A stretch of 64,000 nucleotides of DNA from an uncultured virus (IMG/VR IMGVR_UViG_3300043803_001397) (Duplodnaviria > Heunggongvirae > Uroviricota > Caudoviricetes), in IMG/VR virus record IMGVR_UViG_3300043803_001397. One strand, written 5' to 3'. The position numbers and the translations under genes were made by a program. Position 1 is the stretch's first letter. Every line of letters starts with the position of its first letter. This document shows, in pieces, positions 33,334 to 63,426 of the stretch. The notes under the pieces are model-generated. The model was not told the DNA's origin, did no database searches, and saw only the letters and a program-made list of their open reading frames with translations.

Positions 33334-36300
33334 TTAAATTATTTCAAATTCATAACCTTGTGACTTTAACCAGTCAGCTTGTTCTGGTGTAACTTCCATC
33401 TCAGTACCATCTACTAAACCACCATCTTGTTTAGCAAAGTTACGAGCAAAGTTTGCTTTCTTACGCATAGCTGGTGAGTATTTTCCTTCAGGTGCATTAA
33501 GAATAGTAGAAGCTGCTTCTTGTACACCCATGCCCATACGAGTGGCTTGAGCTTTAAATGTACCTTTCTTAGCAGGATCTAAATGAATACCACCATCTTC
33601 AAACATAGGATATCCTGCACTTCTAACACCAGTAGAAGGAATTATAAATCCTCTTGGTGAAGGAGAAGGTAAAAGTCCTTTTAGTTGAGGACCTTCCAAA
33701 AGTCCTCTTGTTTGAGGAGCTCGTAAAAGCTTAGGTATTGTAGATGAAGCTGGCAACTGATTAGGATTATATGGTAAATATGTAGTTTTAGGTAATAGTT
33801 TTCCTACATTAGAAGCAAATCCTGCTAAAAGAGGTGCACCAATACCTTTAACATATGGCACAAATGAATCTTGTTCATCAGCATCATAAGCCATTGTTCC
33901 AACACCCTCACTAAGAGAACCTAAAATTGCTAATGGATTAACATAATCTGTCCAATTATTATTCTTTAACGAACCTAAATTCTTACCAGTGATATAAAAC
34001 TGTTCTTTCATTGTCATATCTTTCCACTTTTTAGTTTTACCATTTGGAAAAGTAAACTCAGCATTTACATCACCAGCTATAACTTTTCTTCTTGTTTCAC
34101 TTGCTCTAAGATTTTCATCATCCATATTTTGACCCATATCACTAGAGTCACTTTCTCCAAGATAAAAAGGATTTGTAAACTGTTGTGCAGCCATCCATCC
34201 TGTTAAAGAAGGAGTTTCTTGTGCACCTTTTAGTCTACCGTCTATATAACTACTAGTTCCTTTTTTAGGAAGAGATTTAGGTGTTCCTTTATTAGAAGAA
34301 CTAGTAGATTCTTTACTATAAGGTTGACCTGAAAGCATACTTAAAAGTTGCATGTTTTGTTCAGCAGTACCTCTATAGTTTGTAATTCCTTTTTCAGAAG
34401 CAATTTGTTTACGTGTATTAAAATCAGAAGCAAGTCCCATGCTATTTAAATAATCAACTATACTTACACCTTTATAATTATTTGATTTTTTAGAAGGCTT
34501 TTCTTGAACAGGAAGTCTAACATCTAATGGTCTACCCTGAAAACTTTGAGGTGCTGGATATAATTCAGATAGAGAAGGATCAGACGTATATAAATCCATA
34601 TTATCTACTCCAGATTGTTGATAAGCAAGTAAAGCTTGTCTCCAAGAATTATAATCTGGATAATCCTCTAATTGAGGTTGACCACCATTTTGATAGAATG
34701 CATTACCACTAAATGTAGACCCACCCTTTTTATATTCTCCTTTACGTATTTTTTTCCATCTATCTTTTTGATATTCATCTAAACGTTGTAATTCTAATTG
34801 AGCCCCTGTAAGACTCTGACTACCATATGTAGGAAATAACTCACTATTTGGTGTTAATCCTATTTTTTCACCTGCTCGTGCTATTTTACTGTACACATAT
34901 GCTGGCATATCAACATTTAGTTTATCCCACATAAGTTTAGGACTAGATTTAATAATGTTCCAAAGTTGTTCTTCTGAACTGGGATAATCACTTCCAGGAT
35001 AAAAAGCAGAAATTGGTTTAGATGCTACATATGTATTATCAACAAGTGCTTTATTTCCACCTTTTTGCATTTCCACCAGACCACCTTCTTGCCAAGTCTT
35101 TCTAGCAAACGCTCTAAAGAAAGGGTTATTATCTAAGTTCTTTTTATGACGAGCATAGAAAGCTGCTTTACGTTTTGGGTCTTTAGGATGCTGACCTAAC
35201 TTAGAATCACCAAAGTATTTAACAGTTCCATCAGGACCAGTCACTTTATGTGTTTTACCTTTACGATCATTACTTCTTGTAACAACGTATCCACCGTTAG
35301 CCATCATCTCTTCCATATCCTCTTCTTCCATTTCTTCTCCATCACCTTGAGCTTCAGGGTTATACATCATATAATTAGTAATAGCATCAGCTGAATCATC
35401 CATAACTGCAAGTTTAGAAGCAATCCATGGATCTAAGTTTTTATCAGGAGATATAAACTGACGAAGCTTGTTCATCTTATCTGAAACAGCCATCATCTGA
35501 CCTAGTGCCATGCCACCATTAGGTTCACCACCTTCTTCCATCATTGGATTATAATATCCACCATATCCCATGTTAGATAATATTTTAGCCTGTACATATT
35601 CAGGTAAGGCTTCAAATCCTGGGTTGTTTGTTCCTCCGTATTTCATTTCTTTAGATTTTATTTTATGTTCTTGTTTTAGCATTTCTTTAGTAGGTTTCTT
35701 ACCTGAGCCTTTATTAGCTCTAATGTTATCCCAGAGTCCTCTCTTAGAATAACTACCATCTTTACGTTTAATCATTTCTCCACCATTTTTCATTATAGGA
35801 TATTCATCTACATAAGATGCACCACCAAAACTATAGTCTTGTCCTGGATACATTATTTGTTTTTCACCATTAGAACCTACACCTAGTACAGGATAGGGTA
35901 CACCTTGCATAGTTATATTAGGACTAGATATACGAGTTACTTTACCTGGATGTGCCCATTGTCCTCTATTGTCTTTTATTACACCACCATTTTTATTTTT
36001 TGATAGAAAAGACTTAAAACTCGAATGAATTGCAAGATCAGGAAACTTAATTTGATTTCTTTGTGCGTCAAAATATATGTTATCTAGTTCATTATCAACA
36101 AACATTTTTCTAAACTTTTCAACATCTAATTGATTTTTATAATCTAATCCATGATTTTTCATAACACCTCTCATCTCATTACCAAAGCTTTTCCAGTCAG
36201 AATTTAAAAACCAACCATCAATAGGATATAAATCTTTACTATTAGCTATGAGTTCTTTTGCTTCATTTCTTATTCTAGGGTCAATATCATATCTTGGTAA

Positions 36301-37020
36301 TCCATAAAATTCTCTTTGCTGTTTATAAGAGAGCCCACTGAGATAGTCTTTTAATTCGTCATCTGTTAACTTATCTAAAAATCTTTTTTTAATATCACCT
36401 TCAGCTCCTAAATCTCCAAATCCTTCTCCAAGATTATAATATTTATTTCCACCACGTTGTGTGTATATTCCTAAATCATCTACCCCTTTGTTTGCCAAAG
36501 AATTGTATTTCAAAGAATTCTTTAAAGCTGTATTCTCTAAAGCATATTTACCTGCGGTTTTTAATCCTTTACCAACAAGCCCTGCTCCAGAAACAAGCAT
36601 TTCAGCTTCAAATCCAGGAACAACAATATTATCCCATGTTCTTGCAGCTAGCTTACTATCTGCCATATCACCAAGAAGCCCTTGTGTATAATTACCTTGT
36701 TCATCAGAATATCCTCCATGCGTAGCTGCATATTGTTTAGCAAACTTATATCTTCTGGCTTCATCTAAATCTTTAACAGGAGTGTATTGAGAAACAGAGG
36801 GTTGACTTTCAATAATTCTTCTAGCCCTTTCTTGTTCTTGTCTTTTAGCTGTTGCTTCAGCTAAAACTCTTCTTTGAGGACTATCATTCATTCTAGCTAT
36901 CTGAGGATAGTAAGATTGCATATCTCCTCTTGCTCTATTATTAGATTTGACTAATCCCATCTGAGCTTTAGGAAGCATAGACATGTAAAACTGTTGTAAT
37001 ATAGAATCTGATCTTTTCAT
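33334..37020 (-). CDS. mosaic multi-module virion protein with repeated xxxGG motifs
   Basis: About 12 GG-terminated motifs separate unrelated short modules. Confidence 0.7.
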   Translation of the reverse strand: MKRSDSILQQFYMSMLPKAQMGLVKSNNRARGDMQSYYPQIARMNDSPQRRVLAEATAKRQEQERARRIIESQPSVSQYTPVKDLDEARRYKFAKQYAATHGGYSDEQGNYTQGLLGDMADSKLAARTWDNIVVPGFEAEMLVSGAGLVGKGLKTAGKYALENTALKNSLKYNSLANKGVDDLGIYTQRGGNKYYNLGEGFGDLGAEGDIKKRFLDKLTDDELKDYLSGLSYKQQREFYGLPRYDIDPRIRNEAKELIANSKDLYPIDGWFLNSDWKSFGNEMRGVMKNHGLDYKNQLDVEKFRKMFVDNELDNIYFDAQRNQIKFPDLAIHSSFKSFLSKNKNGGVIKDNRGQWAHPGKVTRISSPNITMQGVPYPVLGVGSNGEKQIMYPGQDYSFGGASYVDEYPIMKNGGEMIKRKDGSYSKRGLWDNIRANKGSGKKPTKEMLKQEHKIKSKEMKYGGTNNPGFEALPEYVQAKILSNMGYGGYYNPMMEEGGEPNGGMALGQMMAVSDKMNKLRQFISPDKNLDPWIASKLAVMDDSADAITNYMMYNPEAQGDGEEMEEEDMEEMMANGGYVVTRSNDRKGKTHKVTGPDGTVKYFGDSKLGQHPKDPKRKAAFYARHKKNLDNNPFFRAFARKTWQEGGLVEMQKGGNKALVDNTYVASKPISAFYPGSDYPSSEEQLWNIIKSSPKLMWDKLNVDMPAYVYSKIARAGEKIGLTPNSELFPTYGSQSLTGAQLELQRLDEYQKDRWKKIRKGEYKKGGSTFSGNAFYQNGGQPQLEDYPDYNSWRQALLAYQQSGVDNMDLYTSDPSLSELYPAPQSFQGRPLDVRLPVQEKPSKKSNNYKGVSIVDYLNSMGLASDFNTRKQIASEKGITNYRGTAEQNMQLLSMLSGQPYSKESTSSSNKGTPKSLPKKGTSSYIDGRLKGAQETPSLTGWMAAQQFTNPFYLGESDSSDMGQNMDDENLRASETRRKVIAGDVNAEFTFPNGKTKKWKDMTMKEQFYITGKNLGSLKNNNWTDYVNPLAILGSLSEGVGTMAYDADEQDSFVPYVKGIGAPLLAGFASNVGKLLPKTTYLPYNPNQLPASSTIPKLLRAPQTRGLLEGPQLKGLLPSPSPRGFIIPSTGVRSAGYPMFEDGGIHLDPAKKGTFKAQATRMGMGVQEAASTILNAPEGKYSPAMRKKANFARNFAKQDGGLVDGTEMEVTPEQADWLKSQGYEFEII

Positions 37021-40000
37021 TACCTCTGACTAAGTTGTATTTTCTGATTAGATATTTTAAATAACATCTTTACATCATCACTCTTAAACTTTCTTAAAAA
37101 CACTTTGTTTAAATTATGACGAAACTTCTTACGCTCTAATGGTGATTTTTGATAGTTTACATAAGCTGGATTGATTTTAAATTTATATCCATTAGATTCT
37201 GTAATGAACATTGGGATGTTTGTACTTGTAGTAAACTCTCCTCTATCTTTAGTAATATCCCAAAACTGATTAAACCGATATTTCTGTTCTTCTTTAGAAT
37301 AGTTTATTCCTATAGACTGAGGTCTTATCTGAGGATAACTAAGCATTGCCACAGGGTTAGCTTTATTCTTAAGCTCTAGTTCTAAAAGTCCAGATACCTG
37401 TTCTGAGTTATAGACAATAGCCTGATCAAAATTTGCATCTAATACATGAAACTTATCTCTACAATCATTGTGCATCTTGTAAGCTTCTAATATGTATTCT
37501 ATGTTTCTCATAGATACAACTTGCTGACCGCTAGCTGATACAAATTCTATTTCAAAAGGATAGTCTACACCATAGTAGTTAGAATACTTATCACACCTTA
37601 TATTATGTTTCCAAATAGAGTTTTGGTTAACACTCATAAAATGAGCTTTACCAGGAATTAAAAAACTAGGTATCCAGTCATGAAAACTTATCCATGTTTG
37701 ACTTTTAGGATCATAAGACATGGTCCAACTAGCATCTTCAAAATATGCAGTGTTAGTCAAAGGAATATAAACCTTACCATTAGAAGCACTCACTTCATAA
37801 AAACCTTTAGAGTCAAACAATAAGTTAGTCTTTAAAGGTTTATAATCTTTTTTGCTTACGTATATAATCTCATTAGTGTTATCATATATCATTTGTACAC
37901 CTACAGCAATAACAGGATTATCAGCAAAAGGATAATCAGGATAGATTCTTAATAGTTCACTTGGTAAATATTTAGCAAACCACCATTTAAGACCATCTCT
38001 TGATATTTCTTTAATTTGCCCTGCATACTGAAATATCTTACCTTGGTTTTGACTCACCCAGAAAACACCATGTGTACAACCTAATGTAGCAAGTTTATTT
38101 TGACAAGAACCATATTCATATGATTCATCTGAGTTAGTAATACTTTGTAAAGGTTGATTAAATAATCCACCATCTCCCACTGTAATTTTAGTACCAGCAT
38201 CTGTCTGAAGTTGATCCACACCTAGAAATTGTAATGGACTTTGTCTAGACATCATAAACAGTGCCCCTGTCTTATTAATATTTTTAATAGATGTAATAGG
38301 TGAACCAAAATCTTTATAATTATTAGCTAAAAATACTCTCCAATTATCCTTAACTCCTTCAAGTTGTTGTGGAAGTGAGTATGCTACCCTAGTAGGATAG
38401 TAGGTAAAACATGTAGAAAACTTCTTAGGATCATAATATCTTGGAAGTAAATTACCGTAAGAAACATATTGATTAAATATTTTACTAACACTTAAAGAAT
38501 AATCATACTTATAAAAGTTTCTACTCTTAATTATATCTGATCTAAAAAGAGATTTATAGTCAGAATAATTATAAGGATCATAGTGACGTTTTTCAACAAG
38601 TTCTTCCCAGTCTCTGAAAGCAAGATTCACTTCACTTTCTACAAAAAAATCTCTAACACCTGAATTAAATAAATAGAAATAACCTTTGCTAACAAAAAAA
38701 GTAGAACTATCTCTTTCATCTAAATGTCTATTATTACTCATATTACCAAATAACTTATAAGAAGGTCTCTCGGAATTTATCCAAAACCTAGGATAAGCTA
38801 TGTTGATATAATTTCTATAATCATGTTCTGTTTCATCTGGCTCACCCATAAGCCAAGAGTTAAAAAAGAAAAATGAGTTCTTTTCTGTAAATCTGTTTAT
38901 GTAAGTATCTCCATTAAATAAAACACTTGTTGACTGACTTTTTGCATCAGAAATAATAGAATGTACACATGCGGAAACAGGAACTTGTTTTATCTGATCC
39001 AGTTGACCATATTGAGAAGAAAAAACAACTTTAATTGCACCATAGTGTCCAGATATTGTTGATTCTACTTCTTTATTTATTTTTTTACCGGGTACAGCAG
39101 AAAGTCTAAATCTTGAGTTGTCTATACTAATGGGATTATTCTTATCTCTTTCAATTTGAATAGCTACATAACCTGATCTAAAAACATTATTTATATTATA
39201 ATTTGAATTAAAGGACTGTATGTTAGAATCAACATAACTAGAATCATCTATACGAAATCTACGGTCTCCTTCGTTTGTTATAATAGATTTATTATAATGT
39301 CCATGTGAATCATATTGTAAAGCATTCTGTCTTTTAGGAACCATTCCATAAATAACATTTAACATCTGTTCACCAACAGCTGTTGCTTCAACATAAGACA
39401 TTGCAACACTAACTGTCAAATTATATGTTCCAATAATACTATTAGTTATAGCGATAACAGGATTGGGAACACTTGCACCTGAACCAAAAAGAGAAAAAGA
39501 TACAGGATGATTGGTCATTTTAGCAAGTGTAAGTTGCTTTTCATAATTAAGCTTATCTGTTTTACCAAGTGTAATATTACCATTGTTTGCAATAGCAGAT
39601 AGAACATTTCCAATAGAACTAATAACAGCAATAACACTAGAAAATATACCAGAAAAGTTAGTTAACGTTTTAAACTTTGGATGCTTATAAGGCTCAGAAA
39701 AAAGACCTCTAGACTTTCCGTAAATTTCTTGATATACCTTTAATTCAGACACACCTAAAAAAGGTCTAGTAAATGTAGTGTCAGGACTATGAAAAGATAG
39801 ATGATCTTTTTTATATAATGTTAAAGGATATGCTAAATTAACACCATTTGAGTCACCACTTCTTCTAAGATCTTTACGAGCTGCTCTTAATTTTGCTTTT
39901 GCTTCTCTTCTTTGTCTACGTCTTAACTTTCTTTCTTGACGTCTACGCCTTCTTTCCGCTCTTTTACTATCATCGTCATCATCATCTTCTTCATCAAACT

Positions 40001-41828
40001 CATCTATTTCATCTATTTCATCATTATCCCTTTCTGCAGAGTCTAATAATTCATCTTGAGCATCATCACCAAGTGGGTTTACAACAGATCCTGCTTCAGG
40101 ATCTATAATAGATAAATTACTTGTTAAGAAGGTATCAGCATCTAAATCATTATATGGATAGTTTTGATACAATCCTCTAGTACTACTTCCAGGTATATCA
40201 TACTCTCTCAAGTTATTTAAAAGTCCTTTTGCAATAATACTTTTTTGACCTTCTCTACTTCCTCTTAGTATTTCATATCCCACTACAGAAGTTATAGGAT
40301 TTCCAGATAGGTCTACAGGAATCTGTATATTACTAAATGATACACCTAATATTACAATATTACTACCGTCTGAGTTAAATATATTTAAAAGAGGAGAAAC
40401 AGTTTCATCAGGCATTTTATGATGTCTAATATTTTTCCCGCAAAGACTATCCCAAATATCCGGTTTATTATCAGGATATTTTTCAGTGCTTTCCCAATAT
40501 GCCATATTACCTGATGCTATAACTACACCACCATCTGAAAGTGTAGGTCCACCTATATTTTCAAGAGTGGCTGTATTTTGAACTTGCCATCTTTGCTTTT
40601 GTACACCATCTTTAGACTCATAAGCATCACTACTAAGATCTAATACTAGATCAGAAGCTAAAGCCTGTCTACCAGGTATATGATATGAGTCAGAACGTTC
40701 ACCAGTATTATACACCCATCTTATAAAAAATGAATACTGTTCATCTCTTAAATAACCGGTGTTATTTCCTCCCTTGTAGTAATACTGTGCAGGATATTGT
40801 ACAGCATTCCACTGCACTTTAATGTTATTAGCTAAAGGTTGATAATTAAATTTATACTTAGATCTTGTACCCACCTTAAGTAGATAATCATTAACTGTAT
40901 ACATAGAGTCAGATCTTTCAATAGGATCTGTTCTTAATAGCACTTGATTCAAAGGAATAGTAATAAGTTCAGGTCCAATTGTGTCTATGTATATTTTTCC
41001 TTGATTACTAGAATAAATACCTATTTTTTTAGCTACTGTTTGCTGATTAATAATAGAAATGATTACTAATTCAAACTCATCAAAATTTTGGTCTACAGAA
41101 CTCACTTCTATTTCTAAAGATCCATTAAGATTTTCATGAGACCATATAGGCTGCACTTCAGTGGTTCCCATATAATCAGTAACTCGTACACCATTTATAG
41201 TGTAAGCAATAAGTGCTTGATAAGAACCATTTGCTAGTGTACCGCTGCCAACTCCTTTTTTTATATTCAAACAGGGTTGAGCTATAAGTGGAGAAAGTCT
41301 AAGCTTTTCACAATCAAGTTGTAAAGGTTGTAAATATGTTTTTATAGCACATCCATCTTCAATAGTTTCAATATATTTAAAAGGAGGATTGCCTATATCC
41401 ATAAATCTGTCTGGATTTAGTGCATCAACCCAATATACAGGTCTATCACAATCAAATCTTTTACGAGAAGCACCTGTAATTAAATTAGACCTTTTGAATC
41501 CTAAACATGGGTCATTTACCACCTTTGTATAAGTACACTGACTTTCGTCAAATATTCCTATTTCTGAATCAACATCATCAGTAGTAAAAACAACCCATTG
41601 ATCATCAGTAAGATGAATACAACCTATTAGTGTATATGGAAGTGTTACACAGTACAAGTTAGCAGGCTCATTACCTATTACACCAAGCTGACCATCATGT
41701 GAGTTATTTACAGCATTGCGAGCATGTGTATACAACCCTTCTCCTACAAATGTTTCATTGTAGTCTTTCACCATACCTTTGCTAAAAGTATTAGTAATTA
41801 TACCAGGGTTTTGTGATTGCTCAGCCAT
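37020..41828 (-). CDS. tail stabilisation (muzzle-like) protein
   Basis: FSKGMVKD...ARNA...IGNEPAN N-terminus, GYLRDEQYSFFIRW, FNGDTYI, YGSCQN, WISFHDW; crAss-like synteny. Confidence 0.75.
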   Translation of the reverse strand: MAEQSQNPGIITNTFSKGMVKDYNETFVGEGLYTHARNAVNNSHDGQLGVIGNEPANLYCVTLPYTLIGCIHLTDDQWVVFTTDDVDSEIGIFDESQCTYTKVVNDPCLGFKRSNLITGASRKRFDCDRPVYWVDALNPDRFMDIGNPPFKYIETIEDGCAIKTYLQPLQLDCEKLRLSPLIAQPCLNIKKGVGSGTLANGSYQALIAYTINGVRVTDYMGTTEVQPIWSHENLNGSLEIEVSSVDQNFDEFELVIISIINQQTVAKKIGIYSSNQGKIYIDTIGPELITIPLNQVLLRTDPIERSDSMYTVNDYLLKVGTRSKYKFNYQPLANNIKVQWNAVQYPAQYYYKGGNNTGYLRDEQYSFFIRWVYNTGERSDSYHIPGRQALASDLVLDLSSDAYESKDGVQKQRWQVQNTATLENIGGPTLSDGGVVIASGNMAYWESTEKYPDNKPDIWDSLCGKNIRHHKMPDETVSPLLNIFNSDGSNIVILGVSFSNIQIPVDLSGNPITSVVGYEILRGSREGQKSIIAKGLLNNLREYDIPGSSTRGLYQNYPYNDLDADTFLTSNLSIIDPEAGSVVNPLGDDAQDELLDSAERDNDEIDEIDEFDEEDDDDDDSKRAERRRRRQERKLRRRQRREAKAKLRAARKDLRRSGDSNGVNLAYPLTLYKKDHLSFHSPDTTFTRPFLGVSELKVYQEIYGKSRGLFSEPYKHPKFKTLTNFSGIFSSVIAVISSIGNVLSAIANNGNITLGKTDKLNYEKQLTLAKMTNHPVSFSLFGSGASVPNPVIAITNSIIGTYNLTVSVAMSYVEATAVGEQMLNVIYGMVPKRQNALQYDSHGHYNKSIITNEGDRRFRIDDSSYVDSNIQSFNSNYNINNVFRSGYVAIQIERDKNNPISIDNSRFRLSAVPGKKINKEVESTISGHYGAIKVVFSSQYGQLDQIKQVPVSACVHSIISDAKSQSTSVLFNGDTYINRFTEKNSFFFFNSWLMGEPDETEHDYRNYINIAYPRFWINSERPSYKLFGNMSNNRHLDERDSSTFFVSKGYFYLFNSGVRDFFVESEVNLAFRDWEELVEKRHYDPYNYSDYKSLFRSDIIKSRNFYKYDYSLSVSKIFNQYVSYGNLLPRYYDPKKFSTCFTYYPTRVAYSLPQQLEGVKDNWRVFLANNYKDFGSPITSIKNINKTGALFMMSRQSPLQFLGVDQLQTDAGTKITVGDGGLFNQPLQSITNSDESYEYGSCQNKLATLGCTHGVFWVSQNQGKIFQYAGQIKEISRDGLKWWFAKYLPSELLRIYPDYPFADNPVIAVGVQMIYDNTNEIIYVSKKDYKPLKTNLLFDSKGFYEVSASNGKVYIPLTNTAYFEDASWTMSYDPKSQTWISFHDWIPSFLIPGKAHFMSVNQNSIWKHNIRCDKYSNYYGVDYPFEIEFVSASGQQVVSMRNIEYILEAYKMHNDCRDKFHVLDANFDQAIVYNSEQVSGLLELELKNKANPVAMLSYPQIRPQSIGINYSKEEQKYRFNQFWDITKDRGEFTTSTNIPMFITESNGYKFKINPAYVNYQKSPLERKKFRHNLNKVFLRKFKSDDVKMLFKISNQKIQLSQR

Positions 41829-45846: not shown

Positions 45847-46764
45847 TTAACTCTGTAACACAGCTATTTGTACAGATTGACTAGTGTTTACCACTACATT
45901 AGTAAAGGTGAGTGTTGAACTTGATGCTTGTGCCGTTTGTGTTTGAGCAACACCATTGCTACCAGTTAAGCGTATCACTCTTGGACTAGATAAAGCAGGA
46001 TTGCTGTATGAAACAGTTATGTTAAATGTACCTATTTGATTGGTTCTAAAATAGCCCAGTCCTGAGAATGATATTGGAAGATTAACACCGCTTTCATAAG
46101 TTACAGCTACACCATTAACACTTACAGCAGATATTGTTACTCCTGAAAATGCAGCGTTACTAACAACTACAGATGGATTAGTAGATATACAACTACCAAC
46201 AGTCATAGAACCCACTCCTGTTCCATTTGTACAATTTACAGTATCAATTTGAAGTTTATATGTAACAGCACTTCCTGATGTATTTGTTAGTGTGTAAAAA
46301 CTAGGACTAGTAACACCAGCACCAGCACCTGTTTGAGTGTAAGTAAAAGCTTGAATTACGCTATTACTATTATTTAATAAAGCACCTGTAATTGTTCTAG
46401 TTCCTGTTCCAGAATAATAAAATCCATATAAATTAACAGTAGTGGAAAATCCAGTGGCTAATGTAAATGTAGATGTTTGACCAGAAGAACAATTTGCAGT
46501 GGCAAGAGTAGTTCCGGAAGTGCAAGGATCTGCTATAAAACTTGAAAAAGTTGTCAAAGATGAATAAAGACCTGCACCACAATCTGCTTCTATTGTACCT
46601 TGATATGCACTACCACTCAATCCTGTAATATTTACAGGAGAAGAAGAAGGATTGGGAGAAACAGTAAATATATTTGATGGATCTGAAGCAAGCCAATATA
46701 TCACTCTATAACCATTTGCAGGCGGTGATACAGGAGGAGTAAATGATACAGTTAATGTAGCCAT
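45847..46764 (-). CDS. FN3/Ig-like structural protein
   Basis: LTVSFTPP...NGYRVIY...ITGL...YQGTIEADCG followed by beta-rich Ser/Thr domains. Confidence 0.65.
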   Translation of the reverse strand: MATLTVSFTPPVSPPANGYRVIYWLASDPSNIFTVSPNPSSSPVNITGLSGSAYQGTIEADCGAGLYSSLTTFSSFIADPCTSGTTLATANCSSGQTSTFTLATGFSTTVNLYGFYYSGTGTRTITGALLNNSNSVIQAFTYTQTGAGAGVTSPSFYTLTNTSGSAVTYKLQIDTVNCTNGTGVGSMTVGSCISTNPSVVVSNAAFSGVTISAVSVNGVAVTYESGVNLPISFSGLGYFRTNQIGTFNITVSYSNPALSSPRVIRLTGSNGVAQTQTAQASSSTLTFTNVVVNTSQSVQIAVLQS

Positions 46765-46774
46765 AGCTATTTAG

Positions 46775-47203
46775 TTATGAAAGACAACTTGTATTTAAAT
46801 CAGTGAATGTTCCACCAAGCAATGTACCATCTTTTATACAGATACTTTGTGGTGTACTTGCATTATTTATAATCTGTAACTGTTCAGATCCACCACAAGC
46901 AACATAATAGTAAACAGCAGTTTGTAAAAGAGTAACTTGTCTACAATTATCAGAACTAGAAGAAACAGCAAAGTTAATAGGAGAACCAAAATTTCCTCCA
47001 CCACAATCAGCTTGTATAGTACCTTCAATATTAAAACAAGTGGGTACACCAGCTATAATAATAGGATTCTGATTTTGAGTGACAGTATTCCAATTTACTT
47101 CTCCTACAACTCTCCATTTAACTAAGTATCCATTCACAGGAGCTATAGTAGGTGCTGTAAAACTAACTTGCAATGTTTTATATGTGTTACAAGGAAGAGA
47201 CAT
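46775..47203 (-). CDS. FN3-like Cys-rich structural protein
   Basis: N-terminal domain paralogous to 45847-46764 (LQVSFTAP...NGYLVKW...IEGTIQADCG). Confidence 0.65.
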   Translation of the reverse strand: MSLPCNTYKTLQVSFTAPTIAPVNGYLVKWRVVGEVNWNTVTQNQNPIIIAGVPTCFNIEGTIQADCGGGNFGSPINFAVSSSSDNCRQVTLLQTAVYYYVACGGSEQLQIINNASTPQSICIKDGTLLGGTFTDLNTSCLS

Positions 47204-47220
47204 AGTAAATTTAGTTTATT

Positions 47221-47874
47221 TTATACAACAGTTCCTGTTCCAACAGTAACAACAGAACCCGTAAATGCTTTAAATGACTGAGGAATGTTTTTAGCAACAG
47301 CAATATTAAAAATTTCATGATTACTTCCTGTTGCTCTAACTACAGTGGCTCCTCCTGAAAGAGCAGTGGTTGGAGCATTAGCAACTGTAAATGTAGTGTT
47401 GCCAGGAATACTTATAACAATAGCACCGTTACCAGCAAAAGCTCCTACACCTGCAATAACTTCTAATGTCATTCCTATTGCAAGATTGGTTGTAGAACCC
47501 ACTGTTATTGTTGTACCAGAACTTGTAGCACCGGCTGTAGATACATAGACAGGACCCAATCCTAAATAACTAACATTAAAAGCAGGATTACCAACAGCAG
47601 TTGTAGTGTTAGTTGCAGTGTAAGTAGTTAAAGGAATAGTTGGTGTTATTACACCATTCAGCACTTTATGAAGTTTTGTTAGTATAGTGATAAGTCTATC
47701 ATTATTACTTACACCAAGTGCAGGAAGATTAGGTCCTTTATATAAAACACAAGGTGCTTCACTTATTTCTTCACAAGGTTCTCCACCAGGACAATCCGGA
47801 AGAACATAACTTACAGATGATCCGTAACTAGAGCAACAAGGTTCACAAGGTGTATGTGTGCATCCGCAAGACAT
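47221..47874 (-). CDS. Cys-rich structural/fibre protein
   Basis: 8 Cys in the first ~45 aa; CVLYKGPNLP motif shared with the 409-aa protein. Confidence 0.65.
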   Translation of the reverse strand: MSCGCTHTPCEPCCSSYGSSVSYVLPDCPGGEPCEEISEAPCVLYKGPNLPALGVSNNDRLITILTKLHKVLNGVITPTIPLTTYTATNTTTAVGNPAFNVSYLGLGPVYVSTAGATSSGTTITVGSTTNLAIGMTLEVIAGVGAFAGNGAIVISIPGNTTFTVANAPTTALSGGATVVRATGSNHEIFNIAVAKNIPQSFKAFTGSVVTVGTGTVV

Positions 47875-47899
47875 AGTGTATATTATTTAATGTTTTTAA

Positions 47900-48448
47900 T
47901 TATGATAGGGTAGCTGTAACACCAGTGGGAGGATTACATGTAGGATTTGCAGTGGTGGTAGCACTTACAAAAGAACAGTTTGTCTTACTAAAAGTTCCTG
48001 CAGTTATTTCTATACGTATTTTATAATTTGTACTTGCTGTAAGTCCTGTAAAAGAACCCGTTCTTGTTGTTGTTCCAGAGGGTGTTTGAGAAGATATTAA
48101 TGTAGTTCCTGTAGTATCAAATATTTTAGCCGTATAAGCAGTTATGGAAGAGGTCGTATCATGAGAAAATGAGTAACCAATAGTAGTACTTGATGGATTG
48201 GTATTGACAGTTGGACAAAGTATATTAATTTGTTGTGTAGCGGCAGATGTTGATATACCTCCTGCACAGTTTGTAACCACTCTAAAATCATATATTCTAT
48301 TATCTAACAAACCATTTATAGTTGCTGTAGCAACACCAGCAGCTACATTAGAATGTGTAGTCCAAATAGTTGGCTCAGTAGATAACTTATACTGAACATC
48401 TTGATTTGATGCACTAGCTCCAGGTGTCCATGTTAATGTAATATTCAT
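47900..48448 (-). CDS. tandem fibronectin type III domain protein
   Basis: ITLTW...VQYK...INGLLDNRIYDFRV and FTGLTASTNYKIRI. Confidence 0.75.
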   Translation of the reverse strand: MNITLTWTPGASASNQDVQYKLSTEPTIWTTHSNVAAGVATATINGLLDNRIYDFRVVTNCAGGISTSAATQQINILCPTVNTNPSSTTIGYSFSHDTTSSITAYTAKIFDTTGTTLISSQTPSGTTTRTGSFTGLTASTNYKIRIEITAGTFSKTNCSFVSATTTANPTCNPPTGVTATLS

Positions 48449-48449
48449 A

Positions 48450-49679
48450 TTATACTAAAGTTGCGGTTACACCAGTCACAATAGGACAAGGTACAGAAAT
48501 ATTTTTAACAATAGACTTGTTACATACATTACTGTTTTTAGAAATAAATGCATTTACAGTGACTGTATAAGGCATTGATGTATTAAGAGGTGTTCCTACA
48601 ACAGAACCACCAGCTACAATACATGTATAAGGAGTAGAGTTAGCAGCCTCTGTAACTATATTGATAGTGTATGTTTTACTATTTGTACCATCAGAAATAG
48701 TAATTGTAGTATTTTGTAAAGCTTGTATGAAACCAGAAGGTATAACTGTTGTAGGATTAAAGTCAAGATATACTTCTTGACGATTTGCATTAGCTGAGGC
48801 AGTGTATTCAAGAATAAATCCTGAACAATCAGATTGTCCACAACAATTTTTAAGATCGGCTATAACTGCTCTCATATCACATACAGTAATCCAAAGATTC
48901 TGCATTGCTTGTGACATATTAGTAACAGTTGTGTTCCAACCTGATATTGAAGACATTGTACTAGCTTGACTAAGAGCGTTTGCAGAACTTAAAGCTATAC
49001 ATTGTTGAGAAGCAGCAGCTGTAATCTGTGAGTTAGATCCTAAAGCAGTTCTAAGAAGACAATACTCTTCTTCTAGTTTATCCAATACAACAGACATTGC
49101 TGTTGGTGTAGAAGGAAGAATACAGTTAGGAGTAACTGTTGGTAGAGAAGGAGCTGTAATGTTTTCTAATGCTGTAATCCTTGCATTATGACTAGTAAGG
49201 GTTGTAGCATGAGAATCAACTGTTGCTTTTAAAGAACAATATTGATTAGCAATACGTAAAGTGTATTGATTATGAATAAGTTGTGTTACTGTCAATCCAG
49301 TGCCGCCATCTACATATTGTAGACAAGTGGGTAATGGTAAGGTAGGTTCTGTATAAGGTGTACCACCAGCTGCAGGAATTAAATCTTCAAGACAACAAAT
49401 CTTTCTTACAATAAAGTCCAATACAGCCGAGAGGGTTTTTGTAGTGGGTGCCGGATTTGCAGAAGAGCAAAATGTAACCAAACAAGCAAGGTCCAAATTG
49501 GTCAAATCCAGAGTAGACTTAATAGTGCACAAGTCTGTAGCTACCTTGTAAACTACATCAGAAACAGTGTCACCGTTGCAGAGGTTAAGACAGGGAATAT
49601 CAGGACCCTGCCATACGACACAGTTAGAAGAAACAGGAATACAACCCTGCTCGGCAGTATTGGATTTCACAGGTAACAT
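48450..49679 (-). CDS. Cys-rich virion fibre protein with short coiled coils
   Basis: 21 Cys; SSNCVVWQGPDIPC; heptad-like segments such as LTSHNARITALEN. Confidence 0.65.
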   Translation of the reverse strand: MLPVKSNTAEQGCIPVSSNCVVWQGPDIPCLNLCNGDTVSDVVYKVATDLCTIKSTLDLTNLDLACLVTFCSSANPAPTTKTLSAVLDFIVRKICCLEDLIPAAGGTPYTEPTLPLPTCLQYVDGGTGLTVTQLIHNQYTLRIANQYCSLKATVDSHATTLTSHNARITALENITAPSLPTVTPNCILPSTPTAMSVVLDKLEEEYCLLRTALGSNSQITAAASQQCIALSSANALSQASTMSSISGWNTTVTNMSQAMQNLWITVCDMRAVIADLKNCCGQSDCSGFILEYTASANANRQEVYLDFNPTTVIPSGFIQALQNTTITISDGTNSKTYTINIVTEAANSTPYTCIVAGGSVVGTPLNTSMPYTVTVNAFISKNSNVCNKSIVKNISVPCPIVTGVTATLV

Positions 49680-49699: not shown

Positions 49700-50002
49700 T
49701 TAAATAAATGTACCACCCACTTCGTCTAAAAACAGTTCTTCTGCTTTAACAAAAGCTTCATCAAATTCATTACATAAATAAGTTTTAGAAATAACATCTA
49801 CAGGTTGTCCACCAGCATCTTTAGAATCAAGTGATGCATATATATTAAAATTTGCATATAAGTTTGCTTGTCCTTGAGCAGGTGGTTGAGAAAGAGGTGG
49901 CATCATACCTCCTATTTTAGACTTTGTAACAGATGTTACTGAAGCTACTGCTTCGGGAAAAAGATATTTATATCTGTCTGAATTAAATGAAAATTGTACC
50001 AT
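49700..50002 (-). CDS. hypothetical protein
   Basis: 100-aa ORF just downstream of a promoter-like motif. Confidence 0.65.
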   Translation of the reverse strand: MVQFSFNSDRYKYLFPEAVASVTSVTKSKIGGMMPPLSQPPAQGQANLYANFNIYASLDSKDAGGQPVDVISKTYLCNEFDEAFVKAEELFLDEVGGTFI

Positions 50003-62125: not shown

Positions 62126-62716
62126 TTAAGTTAAATATGCTGTTCCAGTGACAGGCAGTGAAAAAGTTAATACCAAGGTTGTTGTATTAGCAGATGTTAC
62201 AGAGCCAATCAATTCTACACCTCCTCCATCTAAAACAAATACATTTGGAATAAACCCTAAGTTGTGAGTTATAGTCCAAGTGGTTGCAGCAACAGATTGT
62301 GTATGAATATAATCAGCTGTTCCTCCACCAATATTTACAGTGGGGTTTAGATTAATTCTAGTTATACAACCACCGCTATTAACATCAATAATATTCTGTG
62401 TTCCACCTGGATAGGTATATCCTAAAGATAATGCTGCAGGAGAACACTGAGAAGATGTTCCGGACTCAATTGTTCCAGAAGTATTCACTTCATAAATAAC
62501 AGGAAGCCAAGTGTTATATTGTATAGAAGCAGTTGTTAAAGCATCATTATCTTCATTAAGCTGCCAATCAACAATATGCTTTCTAATAACAGCTTGATCA
62601 TAAGAAGACTTTGTTTTACAACTGTTAATACCATAACGTATGGATTTAAACAATTGCTCTACAGCACCTGCAAACGTCTTATTATGTTCCACTATATTAG
62701 GAAGTAAGTTTCTCAT
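62126..62716 (-). CDS. structural protein, possible fibre attachment
   Basis: C-terminal YIHTQSVAATTWTITHNLG domain of the type found before fibre genes. Confidence 0.6.
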   Translation of the reverse strand: MRNLLPNIVEHNKTFAGAVEQLFKSIRYGINSCKTKSSYDQAVIRKHIVDWQLNEDNDALTTASIQYNTWLPVIYEVNTSGTIESGTSSQCSPAALSLGYTYPGGTQNIIDVNSGGCITRINLNPTVNIGGGTADYIHTQSVAATTWTITHNLGFIPNVFVLDGGGVELIGSVTSANTTTLVLTFSLPVTGTAYLT

Positions 62717-62883: not shown

Positions 62884-63426
62884 TTAATTACAAGAATCAG
62901 CAAGTTTTAAAAGTCTTTTTTGACCATATATAAGTATATCCATACCAGCTTGCAAATCATGACAGTACTCCACTTTTGCTTTAGCACCATCAATGAAATT
63001 TTTTATCAAAGACAATTCTTTAAGTTGTTCTTTTACATCTGCATCAGGCTCACAAGCTGACATCTCAAGTTTACACAACTCTTTATAATAAAGATTATTT
63101 GTTTGAGTTATTCTTAAATGATTATACTCAACATACACTGAAGAGTTGGGAGAAACAGAGAATCTAATAATATAAATACCATCAGGTAAAACTTGAGAAT
63201 TTTCACATCCCGATGTTTGTATACCAAGAGTGCATGCATTTAATATCAAATTAAATCCACTCTGAACATCTATATTAACAGGTTGACTAAAACCAGGAGA
63301 AGTGATTTGTAAAAGACCACAATCTACAGGAAGATTTTCACTATAAGTACTAGTATCAGCCACTCTAAACACCTTAGTGTTGTTAGTGTCTAGTATTTCT
63401 AAACTTAACTGATGTTTACTAGGCAT
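62884..63426 (-). CDS. conserved crAss-like structural protein of the head-tail region
   Basis: DTSTY, LQITSPGF, LPDGIYIIRFSVSP; synteny. Confidence 0.6.
   Translation of the reverse strand: MPSKHQLSLEILDTNNTKVFRVADTSTYSENLPVDCGLLQITSPGFSQPVNIDVQSGFNLILNACTLGIQTSGCENSQVLPDGIYIIRFSVSPNSSVYVEYNHLRITQTNNLYYKELCKLEMSACEPDADVKEQLKELSLIKNFIDGAKAKVEYCHDLQAGMDILIYGQKRLLKLADSCN

Follow-up and report, generated by a model that had tools for sequence, protein, structure and literature searches.

A 64,000-nucleotide (nt) stretch of an uncultured crAss-like phage (IMGVR_UViG_3300043803_001397), referred to here as the window, carries five neighbouring open reading frames (ORFs) on the minus strand that raise a question: do their products, several of which begin or end within a fibronectin type III (FN3) domain, complete each other's folds, and what would be assembled in this way? 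An orphan C-terminal FN3 strand A is termed here a plug, and an N-terminal FN3 domain devoid of strand A a socket. The 409-amino-acid (aa) protein is called the anchor, the 182-aa protein the extender and the 142- and 305-aa proteins the tips; the fifth protein, of 217 aa, is an anchor paralogue. The split-FN3 connector system is real and conserved, and it lies outside any pilus family, although it would work like donor-strand complementation. It is likely that these proteins form a modular virion appendage, with its parts joined by rebuilding FN3 domains from two chains.

The five ORFs, both tails and the three N-termini starting at strand B with a Cys after strand F, which had been singled out from the letters of the window (the original prediction), were all found in place. 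Plugs and sockets were sought inside the window, where among 79 ORFs of at least 50 aa the plug was restricted to the 409- and 182-aa proteins and the socket to the 182-, 142- and 305-aa proteins. Loci of relatives (designated by L-numbers such as L013 or L027) were also scanned, and 28 of the 74 were complete and non-duplicate. These 28 always contained one plug-only anchor, one gene with a W-type socket and two to three genes with F-type sockets; the plug of the W-socket gene was terminal in 23, internal with another domain after it in four, and absent in one. This distribution backs the donor-only, donor-and-acceptor and acceptor-only roles assigned at the outset to anchor, extender and tips. 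The two tails had been regarded as near-identical orphan A strands: their nature as strand A stands and 8 of their 12 residues are identical, but they belong to two distinct conserved classes, C-P-[IV]-[IV] in the anchor (class I) and C-x-x-P in the extender (class II). Five of the eight shared residues are specified by different codons, and therefore the likeness is kept at the protein level. Sockets are also of two classes, W-type (W7/Q16/F55) and F-type (F or Y/G/G).

The FN3 identity of the extender is supported by Pfam, Foldseek and VIA. The Pfam fn3 match (PF00041; E 4.3e-11, 43.3 bits versus a cut-off of 25) begins at model position 16 of 84, and an AlphaFold2 (AF2) model obtained with an 86-row alignment (predicted local distance difference test, pLDDT, 96) revealed two sandwiches, with the tail (residues 165-182) left without a strand partner. 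By VIA, this model resembled FN3 chains with Z 10-12.6, and in the structural alignment its residues 1-75 coincided with residues 20-95 of fibronectin FN3 and its residues 1-181 with residues 18-200 of a tenascin tandem. The extender is a tandem FN3 array whose phase is shifted by one strand. Solved FN3 domains were also matched, from about residue 17-22, by a profile built from 22 N-terminal regions of the 142/305 type, and when this profile was compared with the N-terminal domain of the extender, Cys was aligned on Cys (hhalign P 84.6, E 6.8e-6).

A boundary of this kind might be an annotation artefact, if a sequencing error had interrupted a single long FN3 gene or if frameshifting carried translation across the junction. 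The 409/182 junction is TAA-T-ATG, with a gap of only 1 nt, and distant relatives fuse the anchor to FN3 domains (L030, L038, L039 and the 1189-aa BFVD match A0A7S9SUN3); these fusions show the ancestral covalent form. However, each of the 86 extender homologues has its own start Met close to strand B (178-189 aa in most of them), and the best 120 of 920 anchor homologues, found in a search whose length range was wide enough to catch a 409+182 fusion, all stop just past the plug. These 120 proteins are unfused (354-418 aa), and their last Cys is located 12-14 residues before the C-terminus in every case. Both termini are conserved, as had been anticipated, and the fused homologues named beforehand as a ground for rejecting the idea were not found among close relatives. 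The gap also varies: of 41 distinct junctions, 35 have the next ATG 1 nt past the anchor stop, five have it at -1 to 21 nt and one lacks it; a GTG start is used in two loci of one sequence. The junction lacks the A-B loop residues of intact domains, in which the C-to-W distance is 20, and the tip genes adjoin no plug. With these observations at hand, an artefact is considered extremely improbable.

The Cys residues provide a second line of evidence. All four Cys of the extender were present in 82 of the 86 alignment rows; C78 and C158 were lost together in two rows, and the tail was missing in another two. From the joint loss it follows that C78 and C158 are one pair, with C61 in the socket and C171 in the plug left over. 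As a control, N-domain-like FN3 domains were analysed in 145 proteins longer than 400 aa, in which 580 of 1943 domain matches passed a length/score filter and four more were then dropped. Among the resulting 576 intact domains (94 long proteins), both Cys were found in 235, neither in 338, the strand-A Cys alone in three and the post-strand-F Cys alone in none, and by protein 32 had domains with both Cys, 62 had domains with neither and no protein was mixed, these rows being repeats within related proteins and not independent, with no P value claimed. The strand A consensus of intact domains, C-x-x-P-T-G/N-L, is that of the extender tail, and C-x-x-P was present in 201 of about 235 domains with both Cys. 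The post-strand-F Cys is kept in the sockets, where strand A is absent, in 125/125 W-type and 91/91 F-type cases, and only the tails can supply its partner. The strand-F Tyr and the plug Cys are separated by 28-29 residues in 116 of 122 sequences, like the inter-domain spacing of intact arrays. Considering the coupling in the 576 intact domains and the conservation in the sockets, the intermolecular disulfide included in the original prediction is probable. Plug-socket mutual information, calculated with 125 extenders (effective number 39), was no higher for tail-socket than for tail-spacer positions, and the positive control of this calculation failed.

Three copies of the extender were modelled with ESMFold2, and the homotrimer reached a score of 0.62, the best of three controls being 0.00. 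In a calibration with two copies and other alignments, the threshold score was attained for 20 of 30 solved pairs and for 1 of 23 single chains. The trimer runs shared at least 87% of contacts, with a partner pLDDT of at least 92. The predicted interface comprises residues 168-182 (plus 87-88) of one copy and residues 1-13, 16, 43, 45 and 53-75 of its neighbour. P174 packs on W7, and the tail is lodged between strands B and G, in the strand-A groove, as was expected for a 182+182 complex.

Several points weigh against the proposed joint, in addition to the relatedness of the repeats mentioned above. The Cys-Cys contact also expected for the 182+182 complex, C61-C171, is absent from the 25 best-resolved contacts listed, though both residues are in the interface. 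The favourable score may come from the model's memory of intact FN3 domains, showing fit and not binding, and the complex model covers the extender-extender pair, not the anchor-extender or extender-tip pairs. Tail-less extenders occur (2/86). The anchor gave no significant match to 14 proteins of the crAss001 structural module (best E 0.057, gp21), it has no match in INPHARED, as is the case for the 217-aa protein, and its N-terminal part is without a solved relative. The 182-aa protein yielded one weak 43-residue match in INPHARED.

If there were no assembly in trans, the tails would fold back, or the six-stranded domains would be stable alone and the tails would act as capsid- or hub-binding tags. 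This would suit the two homologues in which the tail is missing, but in the monomer model the tail stays free, so that the intramolecular folding that had been set as a refutation was not observed. Moreover, the anchor has a plug without a socket, the tips have a socket without a plug, and the orphan Cys are complementary between plugs and sockets. The shifted splits of L027 and L028 are exact: residues 286-456 of a 465-aa L028 protein align to residues 5-172 of a 579-aa L027 protein (37%, E 2e-28), and residues 17-260 of the next L028 protein align to residues 197-438 of the same L027 protein (31%, E 3e-16). These two distant phages thus cut one FN3 array at different domains, so that a joint between separate chains in either of them lies within a single chain in its counterpart, and the strand A/B boundary is the site of both cuts. 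Elsewhere, the L056 extender stops cleanly at strand G with no plug remnant, and L033 encodes a 93-aa extender that lacks the spacer domain and consists of socket and plug with two Cys (one sequence cluster on 6 contigs). The absence of trans assembly is thought very improbable; FN3 strand complementation in trans, as originally suggested, is well supported by sequence and modelling through the trimer model, the Cys coupling and the shifted splits.

According to the mechanism that we propose, the anchor, probably trimeric and attached to the particle, would present its orphan strand A, and this plug strand would occupy the B/G groove in the FN3 domain heading another protein. The Cys at the start of the plug strand would then pair with the post-strand-F Cys, giving a covalent joint after the particle has entered oxidising surroundings. 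The extender, having both socket and plug, would lengthen the arm, and the 142- and 305-aa proteins, with a socket only, would end it with interchangeable tip domains. Chains would be short, with zero to a few extenders, their length being set by the extender:tip ratio and biased by the two plug and two socket classes.

The original prediction had considered the extender a self-polymerising shaft, which would build a long pilus-like fibre with many subunits between anchor and tip. Self-association is allowed by the homotrimer model, which passes, and is in keeping with the extender plug, which resembles the strand A (C-x-x-P) that precedes W-type domains in intact arrays and is retained in 27 of the 28 complete loci. 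In L027, the W-type socket has a class II plug opposite it in trans, and the 93-aa relative consists of socket and plug alone, with two Cys, but this form is restricted to its single sequence cluster on 6 contigs. The gene content also speaks against a long filament, with two to three tip genes per extender gene, an 862-aa multidomain protein in the place of the extender in L029, no extender in L030, L034 and L035, and the clean tail deletion of L056. The 1-nt gap between stop and start, present in 35/41 junctions, suggests that the synthesis of anchor and extender is coupled and roughly matched. Neither a chaperone nor a length ruler was recognised. The long shaft is doubtful and was not established, as a short or single-copy extender accounts no less well for the pattern across genomes. 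The most elaborate version, a chaperone-free, protease-free, disulfide-locked FN3 pilus of variable length on the virion of a lytic phage, with a trimeric anchor and ended by whichever of two to three adhesin tips is captured, is likewise unlikely. The start-codon context was discarded as a proxy for extender excess, because it is mostly the preceding stop codon that dictates the A at position -3.

At the other extreme, the arm might be keyed, with class I plugs fitting only W-type sockets and class II plugs only F-type sockets, so that exactly anchor, extender and tip would be joined and the extender would not bind itself. The two plug and two socket classes are kept in 28/28 complete loci, and a class I plug occurs with a W-like socket in L028. 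In L030, L034 and L035 the spacer domain and a class II plug are fused to the anchor (41% to extender residues 78-182), and a tip gene with an F-type socket (hhalign P 90.4) is present, with no extender seen. However, L027 pairs class II with W, L056 has a class I plug alone for one W-type and two F-type sockets in the locus, C-x-x-P with W is the usual pairing of intact domains and the ancestral one, and the extender homotrimer model passes. A strictly keyed arm is possible, although we do not think it probable. What is left beside the long polymer and the strict three-part arm corresponds to mixed short chains or to no trans assembly. Short base-(extender)n-tip chains with interchangeable tips are favoured, because by step-growth reasoning an excess of end-cap genes over extender genes, together with the coupled start, would keep chains short.

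The anchor may be attached to the particle through its Cys-rich N-terminus, whose profile matches the 217-aa protein (E 2.3e-6) and which would be the virion-docking part. The motif R-h-x-x-h-E, found in 33 of 35 anchors, is linked to trimeric coiled coils, and the long helices of the anchor probably form one. The N-terminal profiles of anchor and 217-aa protein gave no significant match to crAss001 gp21-26, gp29, gp38 or gp39, so that an identification of the anchor with the tail hub gp38/gp39 was unsupported by profile comparison. A PDB sequence search with the single anchor query yielded chance matches only, Foldseek with the anchor gave nothing at E <= 0.001, and the ESM Atlas returned viral clusters only. 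In L027 and L028 the plug is borne by the second of two adjacent anchor-like genes (homology by eye; BLASTP between both was not significant). In L030-type loci the anchor comes after genes that resemble, by eye, the tail-hub pair, and for this reason the collar is a plausible site for the appendage. Just upstream of the anchor in the window is a 100-aa ORF (49700-50002, minus strand) without a family match, most relatives having a different protein of about 170 aa there.

The tip domains are most likely adhesins. Their turnover is high, with sizes from 75 to over 400 aa, and socket-only proteins of 75 aa exist. By eye, the C-termini of the 217- and 142-aa proteins are similar small beta domains; in the 217-aa protein this domain is interrupted by some 90 inserted residues, for which a weak virion-protein match was obtained. 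A near-identical small Cys-rich C-terminal domain is shared by the extender L017:8001-8684 and the tip L017:9815-10864, suggesting domain exchange between genes of the cluster. Three-tip loci have, between two tip genes, a conserved 67-aa ORF without plug or socket (L013:10820-11023; also L014-L026, L058, L063, L065, L068-L070, L072 and L074), which overlaps tip stop/start codons, is absent from this window and could be an accessory of the 372-aa tip.

Coordinates of the anchor, extender, tip and paralogue features within the window
Feature	Position	Strand	Content or evidence
Anchor (409 aa), plug only	48450..49679	minus	Cys-rich N-terminal motif, long helices, complete Ig/FN3-like domain, terminal plug
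Anchor Cys-rich N-terminal motif	49515..49643	minus	Paralogous to N-terminus of 217-aa protein
Anchor long helix, residues 136-173	49161..49274	minus	Ends in R-h-x-x-h-E motif
Anchor complete immunoglobulin (Ig)/FN3-like domain	48489..48824	minus	FN3 matches, E about 0.002-0.02
Class I plug, orphan FN3 strand A, C-P-[IV]-[IV]-[TS]	48453..48488	minus	Unpaired in anchor AF2 model
Extender (182 aa), socket, complete FN3 and plug	47900..48448	minus	Pfam fn3, AF2 model, homologues
W-type socket, FN3 strands B-G without strand A	48221..48448	minus	W7 and C61 in 125/125
Complete FN3 spacer domain with own Cys78/Cys158 pair	47951..48220	minus	Pair lost jointly in 2/86 homologues
Class II plug, orphan FN3 strand A, C-x-x-P-T	47903..47938	minus	C171 in 98% of 125
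Anchor paralogue (217 aa), without plug or socket in this phage	47221..47874	minus	Anchor N-terminal profile; weak PHROG 'virion structural protein' match, residues 94-186
Tip (142 aa)	46775..47203	minus	F-type socket, Cys67; own Cys5/Cys56 pair; small Cys-rich C-terminal domain
Tip (305 aa)	45847..46764	minus	F-type socket, Cys62; C-terminal region highly variable among relatives

The five ORFs are located in a virion module, with tail-fibre genes on one side and ring and muzzle genes on the other. Two neighbouring proteins matched CrAss_Ring_1 and CrAss_Ring_2 above the Pfam cut-offs, a 1602-aa protein matched PHROG virion families, and window proteins matched crAss001 gp40 and gp43; ring proteins, muzzle and giant virion proteins make up a Crassvirales-like context. 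The 1602-aa muzzle-like protein (37020-41828, minus) has an unusual charge-segregated insert at about residues 590-655, with an acidic run followed directly by a long Arg/Lys-rich stretch. After the muzzle, a 1228-aa protein (33334-37020, minus) contains an L-alanyl-D-glutamate peptidase-like domain (PHROG 2307, residues 846-911), in line with what is expected of a cell-wall hydrolase that is ejected. Proteins of 180 aa (62884-63426; PHROG 31752, virion structural) and 196 aa (62126-62716), both on the minus strand, are gp38/gp39-like by eye and position, which phmmer did not confirm. An extender homologue (P0082) was found on a 1.58-Mb contig labelled Puia sp., which may reflect a prophage or a wrongly binned phage and hints at a host among the Bacteroidota.

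As a rule, phage fibres are built either as trimers of long chains or from parts threaded along a ruler. With a plug-and-socket FN3 joint, if true, tips and arm lengths could be mixed after translation, and tip genes could be swapped without changing the base, in agreement with the high turnover observed for tip domains. A function is thereby proposed for a widespread unannotated family (the 920 anchor homologues), and a natural pair of a 12-residue tag and a 75-residue catcher with a reducible covalent lock is offered. If the variable-length pilus were true, one genome would give particles of mixed fibre length and specificity.

With regard to known systems, no account of split FN3 joints in crAss-like phages was found in a literature search that covered main texts and few subscription journals. 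The incomplete Ig-like fold and the spare terminal strand are features shared with fibres built by donor-strand complementation. In chaperone-usher pili, the Pam pili of the candidate phyla radiation (CPR) (PMC13278184) and TLP-1 fibrils (PMC11494351), a strand of the neighbour also completes an Ig-like domain, and Pam pili have an acceptor-only tip subunit, PamT (PMC13278184). As far as the accessible text of these sources goes, the donor is N-terminal or in a linker and the structures are on the cell surface, not on a virion (PMC13278184, PMC11494351); in addition, Pam and chaperone-usher systems use signal peptides and chaperones, and the Pam disulfides are intramolecular (PMC13278184). The donor of the phage system is C-terminal in the trimer model, no hydrophobic N-terminus resembling a signal peptide was found in the five proteins (11-residue hydropathy maximum 0.5-1.36), and no chaperone-usher family was detected among 26 neighbouring proteins scanned with Pfam and PHROG.

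Type V pili of Bacteroidia (FimA, Mfa1-5) are closer in organization, since a C-terminal donor strand enters the groove of the next subunit, anchor and stalk carry donors and tips do not, and there are several tip genes per cluster; their pilins, according to the accessible text, are lipoproteins with two transthyretin-like domains that are self-complemented until protease cleavage (PMC13655056). The phage proteins have instead the FN3 fold, a Cys pair at the joint and virion-module genes, with neither a signal peptide (or lipoprotein signal) nor a removable N-terminal placeholder strand, the extender starting at strand B. The shared C-terminal donor and anchor/stalk/tip cluster would be analogy and not homology.

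Among phages, the chain-like fibres of the podophages A1002, GP4 and VP1 are also made of several small separate proteins with beta-sheet augmentation, but these are dimers on a rope protein that fixes the length, and the words 'donor', 'disulfide' and 'fibronectin' are absent from the main text (PMC13730344). The crAss001 virion shares the order-level architecture of ring proteins, muzzle, tail hubs and Ig-like fibre domains, and its tail has inter-chain disulfides, although no split FN3 is described in the text available (PMC10172136). Ig-like virion domains have been linked to adhesion, and the part of that source consulted describes no such split joint (PMC13370021). In Lactococcus phage Tuc2009, a C-terminal extension of BppU completes the beta-sandwich of a partner virion protein, BppA, and hangs an accessory carbohydrate-binding module, the composite domain resembling a titin domain (PMC4742702). 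This single joint differs in using a 25-residue BppU hairpin to the BppA C-terminal domain, and the accessible text mentions no disulfide, two-halved subunit or alternative tips for it (PMC4742702). Tuc2009 is a phage precedent for fold completion by two chains, and the system described here belongs neither there nor to type V pili. The tandem Cys-stapled FN3 arrays of long proteins share the same domain, the C-x-x-P strand A and the post-strand-F Cys, and the profile of the 182-aa protein aligns to them without a break; these arrays are joined covalently in cis, whereas in the phage the gene boundary is displaced by one strand.

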